Positions 15,533 to 27,124 are shown, numbered from the stretch's first letter. The stretch is DNA of 64,000 bases from Paracoccaceae bacterium (GCA_039969355.1 JBDVOA010000008.1:42874-106873), one strand, 5' to 3'. Numbers and translations: made by a program. Notes: a model not told the origin generated them from the sequence alone.

Positions 15533-16607
15533 TTGGCACCTGATGAAAGACAGCTATTCAAGTATCGAGATGCGTCGCATCTGGTCCGAGTCCTCTACCA
15601 TCTCGGCGTGGATCAAGGTTGAACAAGCCCTAGCACACGTACAGGCACTGGCAGGGCTCATACCAAATGAAGCTGCTGCTGCTCTAGAGACTTTCACTGT
15701 CGGAAATTTGGATCAAGATCGTTTGCGCACCAGTTTGGGATTGGTCGGACGACCCATTGTTGGGCTGGTTGAACAGATGCGTGAGAATGTCGGTGATGAA
15801 CACGCGCCATATGTACACTACAAAAGCACAACACAGGATATTCTGGATACGGCGTTGGCGATGCAAATGAAGCTGGGGTTGTCGGCGGTTGCCGACGACA
15901 CAAACAAGCTGATTACCTCTCTGGCGAGTCATATCGACGCTCATCCAACAACAAGAGTCATAGGCCGAACCAACGGTCAACATGCCGTGCCGATGCTGCT
16001 AAAAACCAAACTGGAAGTATGGCGCGCAGAACTAACGCGGCGCATAGCCGTCGTGAAAGAAGCTGGTATTCGCGGATCATTGGTACAAGTCGGTGGGCCA
16101 TTGGGTGATTTGTCCAACTACGACGATCAGGGAAATGTGGTCAAAGCGGGTATGGCGAAGGCGCTTGATCTTGGGAGTGTCGATCCTCACTGGCAAAATG
16201 CGCGAGACGGGGTAGCAGATATTGTCTGCGCACTTGGAGCGCTGTGCGCCACGCTTTGTAAGATCGCTTACAACATCAATTTGTTGTCATCGAGCGACAT
16301 TAGCGAGATCCACGAATGCCACGAAAACGGAAAGGGAGCGTCCTCATCAATGCACCACAAGAGGAACCAGCGGGCGAGCGAATTTGCCGAAGCGGTTGCA
16401 AGGCTGGGACGGCAACGGTCCGAACAGATAGGCGAGCTCACATTACACCAGCACGAACGCTCTGGTGGTGTATGGGTTGCCGAATGGTTGGTGGTACCCG
16501 AGGTCTTTTTGCTAACGTCAGGCGCTTTGGCATGGTCGAACAAGATGCTTGCTGATCTGACGGTTGACACGGATCGGATGGAACAGAAACTAACTCTTCC
16601 GAGTTAG
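15525..16607 (+). CDS. Fumarase/adenylosuccinate-lyase superfamily protein (3-carboxy-cis,cis-muconate cycloisomerase-like), C-terminally short
   Basis: An AGGAGGG RBS precedes the start, which overlaps the tctA stop. The signature GASSSMHHKRNQ matches SSxMPxKxN. The protein ends about 60-80 aa earlier than usual (see finding). Confidence 0.75.
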   Translation: MLDWHLMKDSYSSIEMRRIWSESSTISAWIKVEQALAHVQALAGLIPNEAAAALETFTVGNLDQDRLRTSLGLVGRPIVGLVEQMRENVGDEHAPYVHYKSTTQDILDTALAMQMKLGLSAVADDTNKLITSLASHIDAHPTTRVIGRTNGQHAVPMLLKTKLEVWRAELTRRIAVVKEAGIRGSLVQVGGPLGDLSNYDDQGNVVKAGMAKALDLGSVDPHWQNARDGVADIVCALGALCATLCKIAYNINLLSSSDISEIHECHENGKGASSSMHHKRNQRASEFAEAVARLGRQRSEQIGELTLHQHERSGGVWVAEWLVVPEVFLLTSGALAWSNKMLADLTVDTDRMEQKLTLPS

Positions 16608-16785
16608 CGGCACTGATCCAGATTATTTTTGCCCTCTCAGACGAAACTACACACTCGGCCGCTTTTGGCATCATGGCCATCTACTTCAACAACATTTCTT
16701 TGGCTCCGCTGTTGCCTGATACATCTAACGCCCAAAAAGTTGTGAACATCCTTACCTGCCCATTGAAAGAAGAGTAACAATCAAA

Positions 16786-17046
16786 ATGAATGCGCGCACC
16801 CTGAATTACATCACCTTTGTCGCACTTATGGCTTCAACCACGCTTGGATACCAATTTCTGTGGGGGTTATTATTTTTGTATTGGACAATTCCGAACTTCT
16901 ACTCGGGGCATGCTTTCCTGTTGTCTGACGTTACCCGTGGCGAAGACCCCGTCTTGTTTTGGGCGGTCCAAATTGCATGGGTTGTTCTTGGAGCGTTGCT
17001 TGTAGTGATCGACTTTTTCCCGCAGATCTTAGGGGATGCCAGATGA
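16786..17046 (+). CDS. Small two-TM membrane protein, hypothetical
   Basis: The 86-aa product has two hydrophobic helices. Its stop overlaps the Rieske gene start (ATGA). Confidence 0.55.
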   Translation: MNARTLNYITFVALMASTTLGYQFLWGLLFLYWTIPNFYSGHAFLLSDVTRGEDPVLFWAVQIAWVVLGALLVVIDFFPQILGDAR

Positions 17047-18197
17047 ACCGGATGCTGCACCACCTGCCTGTCGAAGCTTACACCTCGCAAGATTGGTTCG
17101 ACCGGGAACAACGACAGATATTTTCCAACACCTGGCGTTATGCAGGCTTCATGGAAGATGTCAGCGAACCCGGTCAGTACATCAGCGTGCAAGCTGGCCT
17201 GAACAATATTTTTATTGTCATGGGTCGGGACCGGCGGCTGAGGGCATTCCACAACATTTGTCGTCATCGTGGAACTCAGCTGATCCGCGCCGTGGGTAAA
17301 GCACAAAAAGCGCTGACATGTCCCTATCATGACTGGACCTATGATCTGGAAGGCAACCTGATTTCGGTGCCCGAAGAAGACCGAGAGTTTCAAGGCATAG
17401 ACAAGTCTTGCTTGGGCCTAAAACCTGCCAGCGTGGACATCTGGAAAAGCATGTTGTTTGTGCATCCTGATCCAAATGCGGGTTCGATCATGGATTGGTT
17501 CGGAGACATCGATATGCAAGTTGGCCCGCACGTGCCGGAAGAACTGCCCGAATATGAAGAGGCGCAAATTTCTTACGAGATCAAAGCCAATTGGAAAATC
17601 ATCGTCGAGAACTACATAGACGTCTATCATCTTGCGCATCTCCACTCCGGCACATTGCAGATGTATGATCACGCCAATGCCGAATATGGTTTTGTTGGAC
17701 CACATTATATGTTCTGGGAGCCACCCGTTGCTGAATATGCAGACAATCAGGACAAAAAATTACCCGCACCGCGTGTGATACCAAACGACCAGGACGGGGC
17801 TTGGGTGCCCATGCTTTTTCCAGGTATTGGCCTTGGTGCAGCTGAAGACGGCTGGAACATATTTATAATCGAACCAATTGCGCCTGACCTGACCCGAGTA
17901 ACCAATCGCAGTCGGGTTGCAAACGCCAGCGCATGGGAGTTCTCCAAGCAATCAATGCGATCAACGGGGTTTTGGTCGAACTTCGGATTGAGTGGCAAGT
18001 ACGAGGGGAACGACGCGCAATCCGAAGATGATCCAATGGCCAGCGGGGATTTCACAGCCGAGGATATCTATGCCTGTGAGCAACAACAAAAGTCCCTCTA
18101 TTCGCCCCACTATGAGGTAGGGCCCGCCGCCAAGGGCGAAAGCCCGGTTCTGGACCACCAGAAGGTTGTTCTAAGTTGGCTGGAGGGATCGAAATGA
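17043..18197 (+). CDS. Rieske [2Fe-2S] non-heme iron oxygenase, alpha-type subunit
   Basis: The Rieske motif CRHRGTQL..CPYHDWTY is present. I trimmed the ORF to the ATG at 17043. No beta subunit gene is present. Confidence 0.9.
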   Translation: MNRMLHHLPVEAYTSQDWFDREQRQIFSNTWRYAGFMEDVSEPGQYISVQAGLNNIFIVMGRDRRLRAFHNICRHRGTQLIRAVGKAQKALTCPYHDWTYDLEGNLISVPEEDREFQGIDKSCLGLKPASVDIWKSMLFVHPDPNAGSIMDWFGDIDMQVGPHVPEELPEYEEAQISYEIKANWKIIVENYIDVYHLAHLHSGTLQMYDHANAEYGFVGPHYMFWEPPVAEYADNQDKKLPAPRVIPNDQDGAWVPMLFPGIGLGAAEDGWNIFIIEPIAPDLTRVTNRSRVANASAWEFSKQSMRSTGFWSNFGLSGKYEGNDAQSEDDPMASGDFTAEDIYACEQQQKSLYSPHYEVGPAAKGESPVLDHQKVVLSWLEGSK

Positions 18198-19258
18198 GCC
18201 GCGATTTCTTTCCTCTGACCGTGCTCGATACGAAAGATGAAATTGGTGGCCTGGCCAAAACGGTCATGTTTGATGTGCCCGAGGATTTGGCTGAAAAATT
18301 CGCTTGGCGTGCAGGCCAACACCTTTCCCTTCGCGTCCAATTGAAAGAGGGGGAGGTGCGACGCAGCTATTCCATTTCATCGTCACCTGTCTCAGGCGAT
18401 CCATTGCGAATCACGGTCAAGCGAGTGAATGACGGGCTAGTGAGTAACTACATCAACGACAATGTTGCAAAGGGCGATGTTATCGACGTGATGCCTCCAT
18501 TTGGCGGCTTCTGTCTGGATACAGCCCAGAACTTTCGCCGAACGCATTACTTTTTCGGGGCAGGATCAGGGATCACGCCGCTATTCTCCATGCTGCACTC
18601 GGTAATGTGTAATGAGCCACACTCCGTTGCCTATCTGGCCTATGGTAACAAAAACGCTGAGAGCATTCTCTTCAAGGATGCGCTATCCAAAATATCAGAT
18701 GATTTTGGCCGCCGGGTTGGCGTCAAGCACGTGCTATCTGCACCTTCAATGTGGTCGGGATTTAAATATTGGCGCAAGGGGATCGTGGATGAAGGCGCGA
18801 TCAAAGCTTTGATTGAAGAACACCCGCCTTACGCTCAAGACGCACAATACTACGTTTGCGGCCCGGGTGGGATGAACAAGGCTGTAAAAGTCGCATTGAT
18901 GTCCTTGGATGTACCGCAAGACAGAATCCACATGGAAAACTATGGCGGGGCGGATGAGATAGACGATACCGTCAAAGGCATAAAAGCGACCGCCGAAATC
19001 ACGTTGAATGGCGAGCAGCAAAACGTTTCAATCGGTGCCGGTCAAACCGTGCTCGAGGCCGTAAGGCTGGCTGGATTGAGACCACCTTTTTCGTGCCAAT
19101 CTGGTGTCTGCGGCGCATGCCGAGCCAATCTGACCGTAGGAACTGTACATATGCGCGCCCGAATGGCACTGGAGGACAATGACATCAAAAAGGGGCGTGT
19201 TTTGACCTGCCAGTCCGTACCAACATCAGAAGCACTCTCGATCAGTTATGACGGCTAA
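18194..19258 (+). CDS. Oxygenase reductase: FNR-like flavin/NAD domain + C-terminal plant-type [2Fe-2S] ferredoxin
   Basis: The flavin-binding RSYSISS motif and the C-terminal CQSGVCGACRA..C cluster are present. The start overlaps the Rieske stop, with a GGAGGG RBS. Confidence 0.9.
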   Translation: MSRDFFPLTVLDTKDEIGGLAKTVMFDVPEDLAEKFAWRAGQHLSLRVQLKEGEVRRSYSISSSPVSGDPLRITVKRVNDGLVSNYINDNVAKGDVIDVMPPFGGFCLDTAQNFRRTHYFFGAGSGITPLFSMLHSVMCNEPHSVAYLAYGNKNAESILFKDALSKISDDFGRRVGVKHVLSAPSMWSGFKYWRKGIVDEGAIKALIEEHPPYAQDAQYYVCGPGGMNKAVKVALMSLDVPQDRIHMENYGGADEIDDTVKGIKATAEITLNGEQQNVSIGAGQTVLEAVRLAGLRPPFSCQSGVCGACRANLTVGTVHMRARMALEDNDIKKGRVLTCQSVPTSEALSISYDG

Positions 19259-19466
19259 GTCAAACAGCGGCGAAGTTGGGATTTTTTGTTGCTGCAATTG
19301 CACCGTCTATCGCGACATGGTCCTATAGCCTGCCTTCAAAACATGAAACGCGCTGCTAGTGAGGTCGAAACATCCGTTATTCATCAACAATTTCTCAAGT
19401 CAAGACTGGTGAACCTTGCGAAGAGCGTTGCACGCAAGCGTTGTATTGCAAACACCTAAACCGCAG

Positions 19467-19796
19467 CTATGCGCGAAATTCAGTATTCTGAGTGATTGAA
19501 AAAGACATGCCCTCGCGCTTCTTCAAACGCGAAACCATGGCGAGCAAATTGTCAGCACGCGGATTACCTTTCGCACTGAGCATCCGCATCAGGCTCTTGG
19601 GGTCCTTATCCATGTCTTGCGCCAATGCCTCGAACCCCACCGTGGCGTTCACATAATCGCGCAGGAGCACCTTGCCGGTCTCCAGATCGTCGCTGAGCAT
19701 CGCCTCAATTGCCTCACGGAACAGGCCCGCCCGGAACTCAGGATCGCGCTCAGCGCGTGCCTTGATCGTGTCTTTGAAATCTTTCGTCAGGGGCAT
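19467..19796 (-). CDS. Addiction-module antidote protein (HigA-like antitoxin)
   Basis: The 109-aa product starts MPLTKDFKDTIKARAERDPEFRAGLFREAIEAML, typical of this antidote family. It lies directly downstream of the toxin gene. Confidence 0.8.
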   Translation of the reverse strand: MPLTKDFKDTIKARAERDPEFRAGLFREAIEAMLSDDLETGKVLLRDYVNATVGFEALAQDMDKDPKSLMRMLSAKGNPRADNLLAMVSRLKKREGMSFSITQNTEFRA

Positions 19797-19797
19797 A

Positions 19798-20157
19798 TCA
19801 GTCTCCTTTCCGTTTACGGGCCTTGTAATCTTCCCAAAATTCCTTGGCCTGCTTGATGTCTTTCAACTGGCGCTTTTTCGTGCCGCCACACAGCAGGATC
19901 ACAAGCGTATCGCCGTCTTGCCCAAAATAGACGCTGTAGCCGGGGCCGAATGTGATACACCGCTCTGACATGCCTTGGCCCACTGGCTTCACGTCGCCAA
20001 GGTTTCCGGTCTCGATCCGTGCAAGCGCAGTTCGCACCTTCAATGCTGCCGCCGTATCCAGACCATTGAACCAATCATCAAACGGCGTTTTCCCCGCCTC
20101 GGTGACATAGACAACAAGCTTATTCACTGGAGCCTTTGGTGACACATACGTTACCAA
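19798..20157 (-). CDS. RelE/ParE-superfamily addiction-module killer protein
   Basis: The pattern ..GKTPFDDWFNGLD..ALKVRTALARIETGNLGDVKPVG.GMSERCITFGPGYSVYF fits the family, and the gene order is toxin first. The true start may be internal. Confidence 0.8.
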   Translation of the reverse strand: MVTYVSPKAPVNKLVVYVTEAGKTPFDDWFNGLDTAAALKVRTALARIETGNLGDVKPVGQGMSERCITFGPGYSVYFGQDGDTLVILLCGGTKKRQLKDIKQAKEFWEDYKARKRKGD

Positions 20158-20311
20158 TTGTCAATCGGTTCTGCCACCTCAATGCGTCAACCCCCGGTCC
20201 ATCTCAACCTCCCGCGTCTCTAGTTCTGCTTCAACTGCCCCTCGGCAGACTTCACTAATTTCAAACTGATCTCTAGTTGCGTGCGCAGCCTCCCGTAGTT
20301 CGAGTCCTCGC

Positions 20312-20640
20312 TCAACAAGCCGTGCAACGCAGCCACGGACGCCGTTTGCGATTGAATGAGCACCGACACGCAGGCGGCCAATCCATCCATCTGGCTCTGC
20401 ATCCTGCCGCTTGGATTTGGGCTTGCGTCACCAGCTCTGAAGCGAGCAACGCCGTGACTTGATGAGCCGTAATGTGTTTGCACATCGGACTGCGATCACT
20501 GATCCAGCAGGCCAGCCGCGATTGATGATCGGCCTCCAACGCCTTTGCCTTCACTCGGTCTTCTGCCTGCTTCTCGACATAGGCCTGCCAGCGCCGCGAC
20601 TGAAACCAGTTGTCGGAAAACAGACATTGGAGCGGGTGAA
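20312..20640 (-). pseudogene. C-terminal stump of a paralogue of the 4618-5481 HTH protein
   Basis: The minus-strand translation ..CLFSDNWFQSRRWQAYVEKQAEDRVKAKALE..MCKHITAHQVTALLASELVTQAQIQAAG parallels ..CFSDNWFKMRRWEKGLAQIQADREKAREAE..LCRHITNRQVEDLIASKLVTPEQVRAAG. The N-terminal two thirds are absent. Confidence 0.55.
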
Positions 20641-20649
20641 ACCTGCGCT

Positions 20650-20907
20650 TTCGGTCGCGTACCCGAAATCAAAATGCGCCGCGAACGTATTCTTATTCCT
20701 GCACGCAGCGGGTATCGGATTGTGACGGCAGGTGGCGCGTCAGCTTGGGGCGATCTGGTGCTTTATCTGATCGGGCGGATGGCGGGCCAGGACGAGGCCC
20801 GCCATATTGCCAAGATCTCCTTGCTTCAACCGCACGGTGAAGAACAGCTGCACTATTGTTGGTGCCTGTCGATTCCGAAAGGCATTAGCTTAACCGACGC
20901 CTATTGA
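20650..20907 (+). pseudogene. Internal fragment of a GlxA-like (DJ-1/PfpI + AraC) regulator
   Basis: ..RILIPARSGYRIVTAGGASAWGDLVLYLIGRMAGQDEARHIAKISLLQPHGEEQLHY resembles the end of the DJ-1 domain. No N-terminal part and no AraC HTH are present. Confidence 0.45.
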
Positions 20908-21108
20908 TTGGTTGTATGACCATTCCATCTCCGTCAACCAATACCGAAGAGGCGAGGTCTGAACGCATTTGGACTGGCAAAGTCTAAATCGCCCGTCTTT
21001 TGGCCAATTTTCGCAATAGGGTAACAGCACGCGTGCCTTTCACAATTCACGCGACTGCTGGTCCCCGAAAACCCGATCAGGTACTAAAAAAGGTTCCGGC
21101 AGATGGCT

Positions 21109-21993
21109 CTAGCGCGTGTTCACGATCGCAGGATCATCACATCGGCCTAAGCAATAGTGAATGCCACCGATGTCACCCGGTGCCAATGTACTTGGGACGG
21201 TTGAAGGGAACATCATATCAATGCAAGAATCACGATCAGCAATATCAAAATAATCCCTTATTCTTTTTGGTGTCCCGTTTTGACCTTTGACGTACTTCTT
21301 CCAGTTTGGGCTGTTCACACTGGATTTCGCATTCGCTTCCCAATAGTTCACAATCTTGATGTTACTTCCCCAGGCATAAAGTTTGTACATAAACCCACTT
21401 GCAGTGGCTTCGCTGACTTTCAGCTTAGTTTTGTCGAATGCTTGCGGGAACACACCTTTATTGGGATATCCTGGATAACTTAGGTTTTTTTTGTCGACAC
21501 TCGCTGATGTCGCCTCGACATGAAAATACTGGTAGCGAACCTTGTTATTTCCGTTCTTGGGGTTTTTGAGTTGCGTCGTCATAAAAACGCAAAGACGCAC
21601 GGTTTTGCGACGCTTGTCAAAATAGTAGCCTTCAAGACTCTTGTCGTGCAGGCATTTCTCAAGAATCTTCCCTTTGACAGTTACACCTCTCTTACCCTTG
21701 CCATTATTGCTCTCTGCTACCCTCACAAATGCTCGGCTGGTTATGCCAGATACGCCCTTAAATTTTTTGGGACTGAGCCTACCACGAGTTTTCCTGAACT
21801 CTTCGTCCGTAAAGTCTTCAACTGGCTTGAGTTTGCCACTGCCAGAACTGTCATCCGCGACAAATTTTTGAACGGGAACGGCGGAAATCTTGAACACTTC
21901 GCCCGTATCAAGATCGCGAGGCCCTGAAGTACACGCTGATAACAGCAGCGCAGCAGATACAATCAAGGGCAGATTAAATAGGTACTTTTGCAT
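21109..21993 (-). CDS. Lipoprotein, Lys-rich, hypothetical
   Basis: The lipobox is LLLSAC at residues 16-21. The C-terminal Cys pair is ..IHYCLGRCDDPAIVNTR. I recognise no family. Confidence 0.75.
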   Translation of the reverse strand: MQKYLFNLPLIVSAALLLSACTSGPRDLDTGEVFKISAVPVQKFVADDSSGSGKLKPVEDFTDEEFRKTRGRLSPKKFKGVSGITSRAFVRVAESNNGKGKRGVTVKGKILEKCLHDKSLEGYYFDKRRKTVRLCVFMTTQLKNPKNGNNKVRYQYFHVEATSASVDKKNLSYPGYPNKGVFPQAFDKTKLKVSEATASGFMYKLYAWGSNIKIVNYWEANAKSSVNSPNWKKYVKGQNGTPKRIRDYFDIADRDSCIDMMFPSTVPSTLAPGDIGGIHYCLGRCDDPAIVNTR

Positions 21994-22120
21994 ACTAGTC
22001 TCCGAAAAATATTAGATAATGCGTCTTAATACCACAAATTGGGTCAAATATCGAAACAATTTCCCAATTTCAGCTGATCTCGAGCTTTTGTTCTGTTGAC
22101 CATTTGATCCAATCCGAGGG

Positions 22121-25100
22121 TCATTTCTTGACGGGTGGGGCGTGCGCCTCGATCTTTTGGGCGACGTGCTCGGTCATGCGATCATGAAACCCAATCGCTG
22201 AATTATTAAGGATGTCGCGGGCTTCAGCCATCTGGGCGGCGGCTTCTTCCACTTCGTTTTCGCACAGGTAGGCATCTGCCAAAAGAGTCTTTGAAAATGC
22301 AATGATCTGGGCCGAACCAGTGGCAATATAGCGTTCTAGCCCTGCTGTCAGAGTAGTGATGCCACTGGCTGGTTGGCCGCACCGCGCCTCGGCCCAGCCG
22401 AGAACAACACTTGACCATGCGTCCCAGTACTGAAACTCGATCTTCTTGCTGATTACGTGTGCCTTCCGGGCATAGATACGGGCTTGTTCCGGATCGTCCA
22501 GCGTGCAGTAGATCGTCGCTATTATGCTCAGAGCAAAGCATCGGGAAAACTCACTTTTTTGCGCCTCTGCCGTTGCGATGGCCTGGTCGAGTTCCTTTCG
22601 GGTTTTTTCGTGATCTTGTTGCTGCAGCGCGCCAGCCCAGCACCGCATTGCGATATCGACAGTTTCCGGGTCGGCAGGATAATATCGGTTGATCTCGCTC
22701 AGATCCGACTGTGCACGAAACACCAGCGCCCGGTCGAAATGCGCAATGGCCCGATCAAACTCTCCCAACAGCAAGGATGCCATTGCGCTGTTGTGCTCGC
22801 TCAGTGTCTGCATCGCAGGGTTGGCATCATCGACCAACAGATCCCTCATGCGTTCGCAATATTCCCATGCAACGTCAGGCCGACCCGCAATCAGGTTTTC
22901 TCCTACAAGTTGGTCCAGTACCGAAAACGCAATGCTGTGTTCGCCAATTTTTTCGTTTAGTAGAATCAATCGTTCCAGGTTTTTGGCGATGTCAGGCGAG
23001 CCCCAGGCGCGAATTTCCAATGCAACGCTCAAATTCTGGCGCATTTCGATCTCAACGATGTCAGAGGTTTCGTCGGGTGTCAGGCGCTCGTGGGCATCAA
23101 GTGCGGCAGTCAGATGTGCGATTGCTTCCTGACTTGCATAATCGCGCATTGCGATACTGGTGGCTTCTCGCCATTTTTCCCGTGCTTCGATGAACTGATC
23201 GGCACCTTGATGGTGTAGCGCCAGAATTTCAGGATTCCGTTTGCAGAGGTTAGGGAAATCCCGCGCCATTGTCTCGGCGATACGACGGTGCAGTTGCTTG
23301 GCCCGCTGCGGCAGAATTGCTTCGTAGGCGACATCGCGAATCATCGCGTGCCGGAATGAATATCTGGTTTCTCCGCCATGTGATTGCAAAACAAGTATTT
23401 GAGACCCGACAAGACTATTCAATTCCGAGTGTATTTCGTTGATTTCCCGTTCTGCGACTGCCGCGACGAGCGCCGTTGAAAAGCTGCGGCCAAGAACTGC
23501 ACAGATCGAAACGGTGTCGGGCGTCGTCGTGAGGTGATCGAGGCGCGCGCGGAGCAGGTCCTTTAAGTTTGAAGGAAGCAGCAATTCATGCTCAGCATGT
23601 GCGTCTGTCCATCCGCTTCCCGGAATGCGCGCAAGCATATTTACCATTTCTTCGACGAACAGAGGGACCCCCTCGGCACGGTTGACTATGGTGCGCACCA
23701 AACCATTCAGGATTTCGTCGCTCCTGTTCAGTGATTTAATGAGTTCTTCGGTCTGACGCGGGCCCAACCCCGGCAGGGATAAGGTGGTAACTTGAGATTT
23801 GCCCCACCAGCGCGGCTGGTATTCCGGTCGATAGGTCCCCAACACCATGACGCTTGTCTCATCAAACCTCTCGATCAGGATATTCAGCAACTCCTCTGTC
23901 GAAGGATCTATCCAGTGCAGATCTTCGAACAGGATCATGATCGGCTGTTTTTCAGAAGAACTTTCGATGTATCGGATCAAAGTCTCAATGGTGCGCGCCT
24001 TAACTTCCTCTGGCGACCCGACACCCGAGTCTTCTGGTCCTCCAGCAGACAGGAAGTTGGCATAGACTGATGCAATTTTACTTGAAACCCCGCCGCCGGA
24101 TTCGAGAAATGCCGCCAGCTTGTCGCTGCGTTCGGCTGGTGTATCGCTTTCGGTCAATCCAACGGCATGATCGAGATGTGATTTGATGGGGTAGAAGGCG
24201 CTGTTCTGGTGATACGGTGAACATTGAAAGCTAAAGCGGCGGCCGTTAGGCAAAACGAGTTGTTCATAGACCTCTTCCGCGAGGCGTGACTTTCCCAACC
24301 CCGCTTCGCCGGACAGGAAAACTGCTTGTCCTTCACCTCTGCAGGCCGCATTCCAGCGCCCCTCTAGCAGGCCAAACTCATCCTCACGCCCGATTAGCGG
24401 CCCCAGTGTTGTCTGTCGCCTTTTGTCGAACCGCCGTTCTGCGCTCTCAGCTCCTTCAACCAACCATACATTGACTGGCTCTACAAAACCCTTCAATGCG
24501 TGCTGGCCAATTGAAGTGCACTTAAAATTGCGACCTAACAGGCGCCGCGTGCGCCCGCTTACTGCGACTTGACCGGGGTCTGCCAGGCTTTGCAGGCGAG
24601 AAGCCAAGTTGGGGATGTTGCCTAGTGCAAAATGATCCGCCTGCTGGGCACCATGCATGAGATCATCGATAAGAACATCACCGGTTGCAATACCGACGCG
24701 CACAGACAGTCTTTTCCCTGCGAGCGTCGTGATTGAGCTTACATCCCGAATGATTTGCAGAGCTGTGAGAACCGCCCGCTCCGCGTCATCCTCATTGGCG
24801 ATGGGAAAACCGTAATAGGCCACAACTCCATCACCAATGAACTGGGAGAAATAGCCAAAGTTTTTCCGGATGGCCTCGATATTACAATTCTGGAAGGCCT
24901 TGAGTGTGTCCCGATAGTTCTCAAAGCCCAGTTCCTGAACCATCCCGGTTGAATTCACCAAATCGACAAACATCATTGTCATCTGGCGTAATTCGCCAAT
25001 TGGCTTTTCGCTGCCGCTCTTAGTTTCGGAAATGTCTGGCACCGCATGGCGTAAGCCATCGTTAGCAGAACTGGAGCTTTCGCTTTTCAGACGGCCTGCT

Positions 25101-25261
25101 GCGCTGAGTAAACGCTTGCGATCACCGAGCGAGATGCCCAGTTCAGCCATATTGGCTTCAGTCAATTGTGGCATTATGTCGAGATCAACGGAATTGGACA
25201 CTAGCACGTCCAGATACTTTTCCATCTTTATTGACGCCAACCAGGGCTTAAGCGCGCTCAT
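22121..25261 (-). CDS. SAM domain / class III adenylate-guanylate cyclase / P-loop STAND ATPase / TPR protein
   Basis: The SAM pattern spans aa 1-60. The cyclase motifs are MMFVDLVNST, FIGDGVVAYYG and GNIPNLASRLQ. Walker A is GEAGLGKS and Walker B-like is ILFEDLHWID. The C-terminus holds long helical TPR-like repeats. Confidence 0.9.
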   Translation of the reverse strand: MSALKPWLASIKMEKYLDVLVSNSVDLDIMPQLTEANMAELGISLGDRKRLLSAAGRLKSESSSSANDGLRHAVPDISETKSGSEKPIGELRQMTMMFVDLVNSTGMVQELGFENYRDTLKAFQNCNIEAIRKNFGYFSQFIGDGVVAYYGFPIANEDDAERAVLTALQIIRDVSSITTLAGKRLSVRVGIATGDVLIDDLMHGAQQADHFALGNIPNLASRLQSLADPGQVAVSGRTRRLLGRNFKCTSIGQHALKGFVEPVNVWLVEGAESAERRFDKRRQTTLGPLIGREDEFGLLEGRWNAACRGEGQAVFLSGEAGLGKSRLAEEVYEQLVLPNGRRFSFQCSPYHQNSAFYPIKSHLDHAVGLTESDTPAERSDKLAAFLESGGGVSSKIASVYANFLSAGGPEDSGVGSPEEVKARTIETLIRYIESSSEKQPIMILFEDLHWIDPSTEELLNILIERFDETSVMVLGTYRPEYQPRWWGKSQVTTLSLPGLGPRQTEELIKSLNRSDEILNGLVRTIVNRAEGVPLFVEEMVNMLARIPGSGWTDAHAEHELLLPSNLKDLLRARLDHLTTTPDTVSICAVLGRSFSTALVAAVAEREINEIHSELNSLVGSQILVLQSHGGETRYSFRHAMIRDVAYEAILPQRAKQLHRRIAETMARDFPNLCKRNPEILALHHQGADQFIEAREKWREATSIAMRDYASQEAIAHLTAALDAHERLTPDETSDIVEIEMRQNLSVALEIRAWGSPDIAKNLERLILLNEKIGEHSIAFSVLDQLVGENLIAGRPDVAWEYCERMRDLLVDDANPAMQTLSEHNSAMASLLLGEFDRAIAHFDRALVFRAQSDLSEINRYYPADPETVDIAMRCWAGALQQQDHEKTRKELDQAIATAEAQKSEFSRCFALSIIATIYCTLDDPEQARIYARKAHVISKKIEFQYWDAWSSVVLGWAEARCGQPASGITTLTAGLERYIATGSAQIIAFSKTLLADAYLCENEVEEAAAQMAEARDILNNSAIGFHDRMTEHVAQKIEAHAPPVKK

Positions 25262-25311
25262 GCGACTTCGACTCCCGAGTGTTGAAACGGCTACAAAAGC
25301 CGAAAATCAAA

Positions 25312-26155
25312 TTAAGTTACCTTATCAATAACGGAAGCCTTTCTGAACTCGAAGCGAATGTCAAAGTCTGTTGCATCGCAAGACCACCGTAATGTCTCTT
25401 TGATTCGGTTTTGCGTTAATGAGTTTGAACTTAAACTGGAACCTTTTTCGCCATCACCAAAACGTCGCCTGTGTTGTACGCTGTATTTCGCACTTTTGCG
25501 TTGTCCCATTCCGGGCCGGTGTGGGTCTGGTTCAACACTGGATTTGCCTCAATCCCATCGCAGACAAGGGTCGCCGCATCGGCAACGACCGCGTTGCCTT
25601 TGCTTGTCACAATGCCGACAACCTGACTGTCTACTTTCGCCAGATCACCGTCGGACTCTTCGTAACTGATTTCGCCACCCAAGCGCTTAAACGCGGTTAA
25701 TTCCTCATCAAAGATGACCTACGCCTTCAATCTCTGCTGCCAATGTGAGTCCAGAACAAAACCCTTGGTGACCGTATTTTTCGAAGCTTTGATGGGCATG
25801 GTGGCTTCAAATGTCACGCCATGAAATCCCACCAGTCCGGCATACCATGTATTCGGAAATCAGGGACACGCGTTAAACACTCAAAAGCCTTCCATTATTG
25901 GATCCCAAATTGTTTACCGCGAATATCTCGGTCGTGTAGTTGCCAAAACCAGCCTTGGCGAGACGTGGATTGCCGGAGTTCCTAAGCAGGGCACCAAGTC
26001 TTCACACGACATGTATGCAAACCGCTTCGTGCCGGAGGTTTATTTCGTATTGCCTCCGGCCTGTTCCTCATCCACTTTTTCAAGCATCATTACGTCTGCT
26101 CCTTTTTCCAAAGGAGCGATGCCAGAGTCCGAAATAGCTAAGAGTGTAAAGTTGG
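25312..26155 (-). pseudogene. Decayed FAD-dependent tricarballylate-dehydrogenase-like (TcuA-like) gene, N-terminal ~60% only
   Basis: The minus-strand pieces lie in three frames separated by stops: ..GADVMMLEKVDEEQAGGNTK*, ..FEATMPIKASKNTVTKGFVLD.., ..LVCDGIEANPVLNQTHTGPEWDNAKVRNTAYNTGDVLVMA.., ..WSCDATDFD... They resemble the GGFEANxEW..AKVRGTxYNTGDG region of this flavoprotein family. This is from my recollection, not a search. Confidence 0.5.
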
Positions 26156-27124
26156 GGTACTCCATACTTCTGGGTTGATCATGTGGGTGGGCGCACCCAT
26201 CGCATAGGCGTTAATCTGGTCGAATATGTCCGAGAATTGCAGATCAAACTCATCCTCGGTGACGTAACCGATGTGCGGTGTGGCCAACACGTGCGGCGAC
26301 GTTAGCAGCGGATGGTTTTGATCCTTCAGCGGTTCTTCGTCGAAGACATCTATTGCTGCAAAGATGCGACCATTGGCAATCTCAGCCTCCAAAGCACCGG
26401 TTTCAACCAGCCCCGAGCGCGAGGTGTTTACAAACAAGGATCGCGGCTGCATAGCCGCCAAATCTGCCGCAGTAATTATCCTGCGCGTCGCAGGTTTCAG
26501 GCGCACATGGATGCTTACAATGTCAGACTCTTCAAAAAATGCCACGCGAGAGCTGGCTACTGTTTCGCCATTCGCGGCGGCGCGCGCACGGCCCTCCTCT
26601 GACGACCACCATTGCACCTCCATTCCCATGGCCTTGGCGTAACCCGCGACTGCCCCAGCGATCCGGCCATATCCGTAAAGCCCCAGGGTTCGTCCGCGCA
26701 GAGTGCGCCCTACCCCGCTTTGCCAAGTCCCGGCTTTTAGCGAAGTGATCTGCTGAGAAACCTGGCGATAACTGGCAAGGATCAGGGCAAGTGTCAGTTC
26801 CGCTGCGGCATAAGATGGCGTGTCCGAATGCATATTGGAACACAGCAGTACATTATTACGGGTGCAGGCCTCGACGTCGATATGCGGATACACACTTCGC
26901 TGCGAGATGAGTTTGAGATTTGGTAGTCTCTCTAAAAGGTCTACTTCGATCTTTGTGCGTTCGCGAAACAATACTAGGCATTCGGCGTCGCGGACACGTT
27001 CTGCAAGTATCGCGGGATCCTGTTCGTGATCTGTCCAAACCGTGACGTCATGCCCGTCCATCTTTTTGAAACTCGACAGGTTTCGAAGCGTGTCAAACCA
27101 GTCGTCCAGAATGTGAACATTCAT
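26138..27124 (-). CDS. D-isomer-specific 2-hydroxyacid dehydrogenase family protein
   Basis: The NAD-binding motif is LGLYGYGRIAGAVAGYA, and the catalytic region is ..ATPHIGYVTEDEF. Confidence 0.9.
   Translation of the reverse strand: MNVHILDDWFDTLRNLSSFKKMDGHDVTVWTDHEQDPAILAERVRDAECLVLFRERTKIEVDLLERLPNLKLISQRSVYPHIDVEACTRNNVLLCSNMHSDTPSYAAAELTLALILASYRQVSQQITSLKAGTWQSGVGRTLRGRTLGLYGYGRIAGAVAGYAKAMGMEVQWWSSEEGRARAAANGETVASSRVAFFEESDIVSIHVRLKPATRRIITAADLAAMQPRSLFVNTSRSGLVETGALEAEIANGRIFAAIDVFDEEPLKDQNHPLLTSPHVLATPHIGYVTEDEFDLQFSDIFDQINAYAMGAPTHMINPEVWSTPTLHS

Follow-up and report, generated by a model that had tools for sequence, protein, structure and literature searches.

What links a cytoplasmic nucleotide-cyclase switch to an exported lipoprotein, and does such a switch serve defence or ordinary signalling? 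The questions are raised by the window analysed here, a 64,000-nucleotide stretch from a metagenome-assembled genome of Paracoccaceae (Roseobacter group). It carries a gene for a large protein that joins a SAM domain, a class III nucleotide cyclase, a STAND NTPase and a TPR-like solenoid (hereafter the cyclase-STAND protein) and, 127 bp away on the same strand, a gene for a predicted exported lipoprotein (hereafter the partner). A first-pass annotation made from the sequence alone had proposed that the large gene lies on a compositionally foreign insert and could encode a conflict or defence sensor with a cyclic nucleotide as its output. We find that the two genes form a conserved, co-diverging and laterally mobile module that is inherited as a unit. 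We favour, with moderate confidence, the reading that a ligand-gated STAND cyclase and an envelope protein together make up an accessory, envelope-linked signalling module. The protein family of the cyclase is known, and largely uncharacterised; what is new is its conserved association with exported proteins of an unannotated family, a pairing described neither in the literature that we searched in full text nor in the annotation libraries that we searched.

Pairing and co-divergence of the two genes

Six genomes encode cyclase-STAND proteins 52-100% identical to that of the window, and in each of them a gene for a protein of 292-344 residues follows downstream on the same strand after a gap of 85-130 bp. 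The products of these downstream genes have no Pfam hit and are 45-55% identical to the partner of the window, and the genes that flank the pair differ in each of the six genomes. More distant partner homologues, about 25% identical (loci L013 and L014), lie tail-to-tail with a SAM-cyclase-AAA_16 gene, with 4-22 bp between the two. We also searched for the partner by itself, using a hand-made degenerate DNA motif for its C-terminus, since alignments of diverse partners contain no conserved stretch of 7-10 columns. This search returned 34 metagenome loci, and tblastn places a cyclase-STAND gene next to the partner in 23 of them. Eight further loci are uninformative, as their sequence extends < 0.6 kb past the 3' end of the partner, where a convergent cyclase gene would lie, so that the pair is present at 23 of 26 informative loci and three are informative negatives. 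The cultured Mesorhizobium albiziae has a convergent pair between insertion sequence (IS) elements, and on a Ruegeria plasmid the two genes stand in tandem, the partner being very remote (hhalign E 4e-5). Overall, the partner adjoins a SAM-cyclase-STAND gene at about 35 of 39 informative loci with differing flanks, which bears out the co-occurrence in variable contexts that had been suggested as a check on the first-pass annotation.

The 24 complete pairs comprise 10 in tandem and 14 in convergent orientation, and most of the stop-to-stop gaps measure 7-31 bp. The two genes co-diverge significantly across these pairs (Mantel r = 0.68, a value reached by none of 5000 permutations). The partner evolves faster, with a mean identity of 27.5% against 40.6% for the cyclase-STAND protein. 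A rough neighbour-joining tree nests the tandem clade of the window among convergent pairs. Unpaired copies from Sinorhizobium meliloti pRmeGR4a and Rhizobium mesoamericanum group together beside a paired lineage in the same tree, which suggests that the partner was lost in these rhizobial copies.

The partner belongs to a family that an exhaustive HMMER search resolves into 287 clusters, all of them single-domain proteins of about 300 residues. The mature part of the window partner contains five cysteines, and a set of cysteines is conserved in the family. Further shared motifs are GQI, FP, KLYAxG and SCIDMMF, as well as YCLGRCxxPxIVNT at the extreme C-terminus, where the proteins always terminate 1-2 residues past the NT. 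The window partner has no match in Pfam, NCBIfam, PHROGs or PADLOC, and none of 51 family members contains a Pfam domain. An AlphaFold2 (AF2) model of the partner reaches a mean predicted local distance difference test (pLDDT) of 89.6 and a predicted template modelling score (pTM) of 0.85, and in this model the C-terminal strands belong to a predicted sheet (block pLDDT 83-89). Foldseek finds no relative of the model, its best matches having an E of 0.11 in the PDB and 0.05 in BFVD at a template modelling (TM) score of about 0.1, and a sequence profile search of the PDB returns nothing below E 0.017. Weak rows naming TULIP, YceB and VirB8-like proteins are not significant, and we discarded these identities. 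The partner family is unannotated, with a confidently predicted fold for which neither the PDB nor BFVD holds a relative.

Upstream of the partner lies a promoter-like block of the extended -10 type (Table 1), which we compared between the window and loci L003, L005, L018, L013, L037, L047 and L057. In tandem loci, the AATTGTTTCGAT…TTTGTGnTA block is entire in L003 and L005, and its ATTGTTTCGAT portion is present in L018; convergent loci have TTGACT-N15-GTGTGnGAnAnT upstream of the partner instead. These sequence patterns suggest that the partner may have an extended -10 promoter for its own separate transcription. No terminator is seen on the coding strand between the two genes. We also considered a CRP/Clr-type operator upstream of the partner and rejected it, as the region shows no convincing palindrome and its promoters are all of the sigma-70-like extended -10 type.

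Domains, switch and product of the cyclase-STAND protein

The first-pass annotation had described a single ORF for a protein of 1046 residues, and the uninterrupted reading frame that we find encodes a translation holding every motif quoted there. An identical copy of the protein is present on nine public contigs, such as that of GCA_039969695.1. An AF2 model built on 65 homologues (pLDDT 84.2, pTM 0.63), profile searches and Foldseek agree on its layout. The SAM domain, which had been placed at residues 1-60, is recovered by Pfam (Table 1) and forms a five-helix bundle in the model (aa 1-64), and in a PDB profile search this region matches the SAM domains of caskin and Eph proteins. It is followed by a disordered linker (aa 62-86, pLDDT < 50) and by the cyclase-homology domain, which spans aa 90-271 in the model and fits the range of about 92-270 proposed earlier. 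The family profile matches the cyclase domain of CyaB (PDB 3r5g) at 4.3e-41, and Foldseek aligns this part with CyaC, CyaB, RhGC and Rv1900c at target-normalised TM scores of 0.8-0.93. The P-loop nucleotide-binding domain (NBD, about aa 293-500 in the model) leads into a helical domain (HD, aa 501-576) and a winged-helix domain (WHD, aa 581-647, with a beta hairpin at 623-636). The single hydrophobic stretch of the protein (KD19 1.76, residue 584) sits in a helix of the modelled WHD, and sequence analysis finds no signal peptide.

The remainder of the protein, aa 651-1040, is modelled as an all-helical solenoid of about 22 consecutive helices and about 390 residues (pLDDT mostly > 85), in keeping with the TPR-like repeats that had been assigned to the last 350 or so residues; Pfam TPR_2 and TPR_12 matches at aa 825-935 are weak, at or below threshold. 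The solenoid is among the least conserved parts of the protein, with a mean pairwise identity of 0.376 (SAM 0.391, cyclase domain 0.504). Against the PDB, the top Foldseek match of the whole protein is PH0952, a STAND with a TPR sensor (6mfv, E 7.5e-13, 737 aligned columns), which agrees with the earlier view of a MalT-like order of effector, STAND and repeat sensor; Avs3 (8dgc, 2.1e-9) and Apaf-1 (2.5e-9) rank lower. The domain order SAM - cyclase - AAA_16/MalT-type STAND - TPR-like solenoid is confirmed, far beyond chance. No paralogue of the protein is encoded in the window.

We interrogated the conservation of the catalytic and switch residues in 121 sequences, comprising the query and 120 relatives. 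The two metal-binding aspartates and the Asn/Arg pair that had been read from the sequence are near-invariant: Asp100 is kept in 121 and Asp144 in 120 sequences, and the transition-state residues Asn218 and Arg222 in 116 and 121, respectively. This catalytic set aligns with that of CyaB 3r5g. The Walker motifs had also been read correctly, except that Walker A (GEAGLGKS) occupies aa 318-325 and not 317-324; Walker B is ILFEDLHW (443-450, with the core ILFED at 443-447). Lys324 and Ser325 of the former and Glu446 and Asp447 of the latter are each retained in 119-121 of the 121 sequences. A separate alignment of 65 sequences was used for the STAND signatures, whose motif names are reportedly those of Leipe et al. 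2004 and Danot et al. 2009. LIGREDE (Arg292, Glu295) precedes the P-loop, the sensor-1 Arg478 lies just past the AAA_16 segment of Pfam, within the NBD of the model, the GxP of the helical domain is G531-V-P533, and the winged-helix domain contains F636-x-H638 with an 'MHD-like' His. R292, E295, R478, G531, P533 and H638, which we take to be STAND signature positions, are invariant or at least 90% conserved (all but E295 invariant), and G321, G323, K324, S325, E446, D447, W450, D452 and F636 are invariant. At the level of sequence, the class III catalytic set and the STAND switch are both intact.

The specificity pair of the cyclase is unusual. Gln140 aligns with the purine-selecting, substrate-binding Lys of CyaB 3r5g, in line with the earlier remark that Gln stands at this site and that cAMP could not be assumed as the product. 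Position 140 is Gln in 64, Lys in 31 and Arg in 13 members of the 121-sequence family, and Gln in all 13 close relatives. The second position (the Asp/Thr site) is Phe211, and the family has A, L, S, F or I here, all hydrophobic or small. Gln140/Phe211 matches no canonical pair (Lys/Asp or Lys/Thr for ATP, Glu/Cys-type for GTP) and fits neither the Gln-Asn of Mycobacterium tuberculosis Rv0386 nor the published PycC determinants (PMC11224242). With these two residues at the specificity pair, the product therefore cannot be assigned. The Gln-Asn pair of Rv0386 is said to go with adenylyl cyclase activity and a guanylyl side activity (the work of Castro et al. in 2005). By analogy to Rv0386, the most likely product would be cAMP, with or without cGMP.

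By analogy with MalT, PH0952 and Apaf-1, the protein would rest in the cytoplasm with ADP bound to its MalT/PH0952-type nucleotide-oligomerization domain (NOD), kept monomeric by the solenoid. A ligand binding to the solenoid would release autoinhibition, allowing ADP/ATP exchange and oligomerization, probably with the help of the SAM domain, which serves self-association. As class III cyclases need to form head-to-tail dimers to be active, oligomerization would pair the cyclase domains and so start the synthesis of a 3',5'-cyclic nucleoside monophosphate (cNMP). The partner could stand on either side of this switch: the cyclase-STAND protein may read the state of the partner, or a ligand that the partner produces or binds, or it may control the partner via the cell's own cNMP receptors. 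In either direction, the cNMP would feed general Crp-type regulation.

Table 1. Module, domains and neighbouring features, with positions counted from the first nucleotide of the window
Feature	Position	Strand	Basis or remark
Partner gene, 294-aa predicted exported lipoprotein	21109..21993	-	signal peptide, LSAC lipobox
Promoter-like block upstream of partner, extended -10 type, AATTGTTTCGAT ... TTTGTGGTATTAAGA	22024..22061	-	sequence pattern only
SAM / class III cyclase / STAND NTPase / TPR-like gene	22121..25261	-	1046 aa, uninterrupted ORF, ATG start
SAM domain, aa 7-59	25085..25243	-	Pfam SAM_1 E 2.6e-10, SAM_2 5.1e-9
Class III nucleotide cyclase domain, aa 92-267	24461..24988	-	Pfam Guanylate_cyc 1.1e-19
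STAND nucleotide-binding domain, aa 288-473	23843..24400	-	Pfam AAA_16 E 2.2e-20
NOD helical and winged-helix domains, aa 501-647	23321..23761	-	AF2 secondary structure, conserved motifs, Foldseek to 6mfv
TPR-like alpha-solenoid, presumed sensor, aa 651-1040	22142..23311	-	AF2 model, weak Pfam
TcuA (FAD-dependent tricarballylate dehydrogenase) fragment	25431..25682	-	NCBIfam NF006130 E 1.7e-11, profile positions 145-226 of 467
RelE/ParE-family toxin	19798..20157	-	TIGR02683 1.6e-29 above cutoff; phrog_3445 'toxin' 5.9e-27
Probable antitoxin, 109 aa	19467..19796	-	position only

Genomic setting of the module

The claim that both genes are compositionally foreign holds for one of them. The lipoprotein gene has a GC content of 0.458 and a GC content at third codon positions (GC3) of 0.485, and only this gene and the spacers are AT-richer. 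The cyclase gene (GC 0.534, GC3 0.571) lies within the range of its neighbours (GC 0.515-0.555, GC3 0.55-0.69), and its composition is native, not foreign. In other genomes, too, most pairs show a lower GC content for the partner gene than for the cyclase gene, with a difference of as much as about 9 points. The module had also been described as an insert between gene stumps; the TcuA fragment on one side (Table 1) is such a stump, and for the other side we have a resemblance by eye only, between the ORF at 20545-20907 (+), …GGASAWGDLVLYLIGRMAGQDEARHIAK…, and the DJ-1/PfpI part of a GlxA-type AraC regulator, with no hidden Markov model (HMM) hit. Direct and inverted repeats in 19000-26500 are only short and at chance level, no mobile-element ends are recognisable, the insert ends carry no integrase and the window no tRNA. 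The surroundings consist of genes for tricarboxylate transport and catabolism and a Rieske oxygenase. The toxin/antitoxin pair at 19467-20157 lies on the opposite side of the variable islet, at a distance of about 1 kb from the module.

Elsewhere, mobile-element genes are often found near the module: L003 and L006 have integrases, L006 has a relaxase and ParB as well, L007, L014 and L064 have IS or transposase genes, and L018 has the plasmid replication and partition genes RepB and ParB. A known defence gene is found near it in one of about 11 genome and long-contig contexts (BrxL, L007).

Several loci have neighbours of other kinds. In L015 (GCA_013035845.1, 6770-8918), an orphan partner gene with no cyclase within 8 kb lies about 150 bp downstream of a gene with a type VI secretion Tle1-like phospholipase domain (PF09994, 1.2e-61), a layout reminiscent of a pair of effector and periplasmic immunity protein. 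L058 (11315-13141) has two motif-bearing partner-like ORFs, flanked on one side by a full cyclase-STAND gene and on the other by a further ORF with a cyclase-domain hit, and in L039 (8302-10367) an orphan partner is directly preceded by an ORF of 317 residues that has no Pfam hit. Genes of phosphoesterase type recur near the module (L014 4030-6858, L064 1637-2842, L005 5703-9436, and L007/L008 8260-9092 and 14905-16332), comprising PAP2/VCPO-like, TPM_phosphatase, Exo_endo_phos and Metallophos/5'-nucleotidase types, and in L014 a regulator with cNMP_binding and HTH_Crp domains is encoded 1.1 kb from the partner. These phosphoesterases and the Crp-type regulator could be components of signal turnover or reception, or a coincidence. 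The Ruegeria loci L007/L008, which have the module, also encode (16514-20371) a second cyclase-AAA_16-TPR paralogue of 1029 residues that has no SAM domain. A PF05014 nucleoside 2-deoxyribosyltransferase-like gene follows this paralogue 25 bp downstream, forming another pair of a cyclase-STAND and a small partner, here one of nucleotide-processing type.

Alternative readings and known systems

The partner is periplasmic and has no cNMP-binding domain, and we therefore read the pair as an accessory, envelope-linked module and not as a Pycsar-like suicide system. Several observations weigh against this reading. Many relatives, such as those of S. meliloti pRmeGR4a and R. mesoamericanum, have no partner, and tblastn with close and distant partner queries detects no partner homologue on 72,556 plasmid records, indicating that a STAND-cyclase can work alone. 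Conversely, about 10% of the partner genes are orphans (L015, L034, L039, L046). A cNMP receptor gene is found near the module at one locus only (L014). It is from genomic linkage that we infer that the cytoplasmic enzyme and its periplasmic partner are connected in function, and the variable contexts, rich in mobile elements, together with the fast-evolving partner would also fit a conflict system.

Of the alternatives, a defence role survives best, and we consider it unlikely. On this account the protein is an anti-phage or anti-plasmid sensor whose TPR region would recognise an invader protein, whose STAND domain would oligomerise and whose cNMP alarm would arrest or kill the cell, with the lipoprotein as an effector or surface-exclusion factor. 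The Avs/NLR-like layout and the Foldseek matches to Avs3 and Apaf-1 are in its favour. So are the contexts of the module near integrases, a relaxase, IS elements, RepB/ParB or a toxin-antitoxin pair, with BrxL in L007, and the rapid evolution of the partner. A 2026 preprint predicts that fusions of cyclase and STAND NTPase form an immune clade, but describes that clade with NACHT and AP-ATPase fusions (10.64898/2026.08.12.744502), whereas the NTPase here is of the AAA_16/MalT type, a group rich in non-immune regulators. The PycC models of PADLOC match the cyclase domain (1.1e-15 to 9e-3), but no better than the generic Pfam cyclase model does (1.1e-19). Beyond these generic matches, no Avs or other defence HMM matches either protein, Avs models being absent from the PADLOC matches to the cyclase or the partner at E <= 0.01. 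The module has no cNMP-binding effector next to it, the partner being exported and devoid of such a domain, and its neighbours in the window have roles in catabolism and transport. Rhizobial replicons carry multiple copies of the relatives, as is typical of signalling paralogues.

Also in favour of a defence role is phrog_25255 ('unknown function'), which matches the cyclase-STAND protein at full length (aa 4-1020, E 4e-142). However, tblastn finds no match to the protein in 50,697 phage genomes from GenBank, and the 2.9 million viral contigs of IMG/VR hold only 11 distant relatives. A phage origin was rejected on these results; the phrog_25255 match is not traceable to a phage, and the members of that family may come from prophage-border calls. 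The defence role proposed by the first-pass annotation finds no direct support here.

It is improbable, in our judgement, that the protein is a stand-alone cAMP/cGMP signalling cyclase next to which the lipoprotein gene is a mere hitch-hiker in a small islet. The architecture is certainly very common, as the first-pass annotation had cautioned. SAM-cyclase-AAA_16-TPR proteins number more than 3173 in the databases, with a best match 68% identical, in Roseobacter, Ruegeria, Mesorhizobium, Rhizobium and many metagenomes, under no other names than 'adenylate/guanylate cyclase domain-containing protein' or 'AAA family ATPase'. Relatives at most 38% identical are encoded on 598 plasmid records, mostly megaplasmids of Rhizobium and Sinorhizobium, with as many as 8 places on one replicon. 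Many members come without a partner, and the cyclase gene is native in composition. Nevertheless, adjacency of two rare genes would arise by chance with a probability far below 1%, and it is observed at most informative loci. The pairing persists down to about 25% partner identity, in two orientations and amid many unrelated flanks, and the significant co-divergence of the two genes likewise argues against hitch-hiking.

Highly improbable, in our estimate, is a surveillance module in which the STAND-cyclase would guard its dedicated exported lipoprotein, or the export or lipoprotein-maturation route of that protein. A block of export by a phage or toxin, or an accumulation of the precursor or C-terminus of the partner in the cytoplasm, would then lead to TPR binding, oligomerization and a cNMP alarm. 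If this is true, bacterial immunity would gain a cNMP-producing STAND and a logic of the 'guarded envelope decoy'.

We give the least credence to an RRNPP-like quorum-sensing circuit, in which the C-terminal YCLGRCxxPxIVNT of a secreted pro-protein would be released, re-imported and bound by the TPR sensor to turn cNMP synthesis on: a secreted-protein gene with its own putative promoter does adjoin a gene for a cytoplasmic TPR sensor, the extreme C-terminus with its fixed end past the NT is the most conserved feature of the partner, and the nearest NCBIfam model, TIGR03903, is named for TOMM peptide clusters (an association that we presume), but the partner is a folded domain of 300 residues whose C-terminal strands take part in the predicted sheet, its motif stays invariant in a family that has diverged to about 25% identity, the opposite of pherotype diversification, and the module is linked to neither an oligopeptide permease nor a processing protease.

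An accessory, envelope-linked signalling module would matter for a large group of proteins. Cyclase-STAND fusions are abundant in alphaproteobacteria, recent preprints are only beginning to raise the question of signalling versus immunity for them, and to our knowledge Rv0386 is the only related protein that has been studied experimentally. An obligate-looking, co-evolving partner offers the first concrete experimental handle on the input or output of a large subfamily, as a two-gene unit that can be tested in cultured hosts (Ruegeria spp., Roseobacter sp. YSTF-M11 and Mesorhizobium albiziae). The analysis also flags an unannotated family of exported proteins, with about 290 clusters and a predicted fold without a relative in the PDB or BFVD. 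If the link is sensory, the module would show how a cytoplasmic NLR-like switch can be wired to the cell envelope.

Among annotated families, the best NCBIfam match of the cyclase-STAND protein is TIGR03903, a kinase/cyclase fusion of TOMM systems that presumably accompanies TOMM peptide clusters. The match covers aa 75-1013, the core of cyclase, NOD and solenoid, at 401.1 bits against a cutoff of 705.75, and begins at profile position 270, past the kinase. In contrast to TIGR03903, the window protein has no N-terminal kinase, and no TOMM-type gene is among its annotated neighbours.

Avs proteins have the same tripartite order of N-terminal effector, STAND NTPase and C-terminal TPR-like sensor, whereas a periplasmic partner is not an Avs feature. 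We know of no defence phenotype for a cyclase-STAND of the type found in the window. A 2026 survey of defence STANDs does not mention cyclases in its main text (PMC13581612). Pycsar and Pucsar systems, which combine a cyclase with a cNMP-activated TIR or transmembrane effector, resemble the module in having a class III homologue and in being two-gene units. However, the partner has none of the features of a Pycsar effector (a cNMP-binding domain, TIR or multi-pass transmembrane segments) and is exported instead, and the cyclase of the window comes joined to a STAND switch, in contrast to Pycsar-1 cyclases, of which most are described as stand-alone (10.64898/2026.08.12.744502).

Closer likenesses are found among regulators. 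MalT/PH0952/AfsR-type STANDs have the order NBD-HD-WHD followed by a helical repeat sensor, as in the window protein; their output is DNA binding, whereas here it is a cyclase, accompanied by a SAM domain. The mechanism to be expected from MalT and PH0952 is inducer-driven ADP/ATP exchange with multimerisation (PMC6468293, PMC4381067), and non-immune STANDs with TPR sensors are well documented in MalT and PH0952 (PMC6468293, PMC4381067) and in AfsR (PMC10936776). Rv0386 of M. tuberculosis (also Rv1358 and Rv2488c), which we compared by its published description, has the order class IIIc cyclase - MalT-type ATPase - TPR - LuxR helix-turn-helix (HTH). As summarised in 10.1101/2024.03.06.583649, it has a Gln-Asn pair and is an adenylyl cyclase with guanylyl side activity. 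The LuxR-type HTH at its C-terminus is absent from the window protein, which matches no HTH, GerE or other DNA-binding Pfam model and ends in the solenoid. Common to the two proteins are the class III cyclase at the N-terminus, the AAA_16/MalT-type P-loop NTPase and the TPR region that come after it, and Gln in place of the substrate-defining Lys; the window protein differs in its N-terminal SAM domain, in having Phe and not Asn as the second specificity residue, and in its exported lipoprotein partner.

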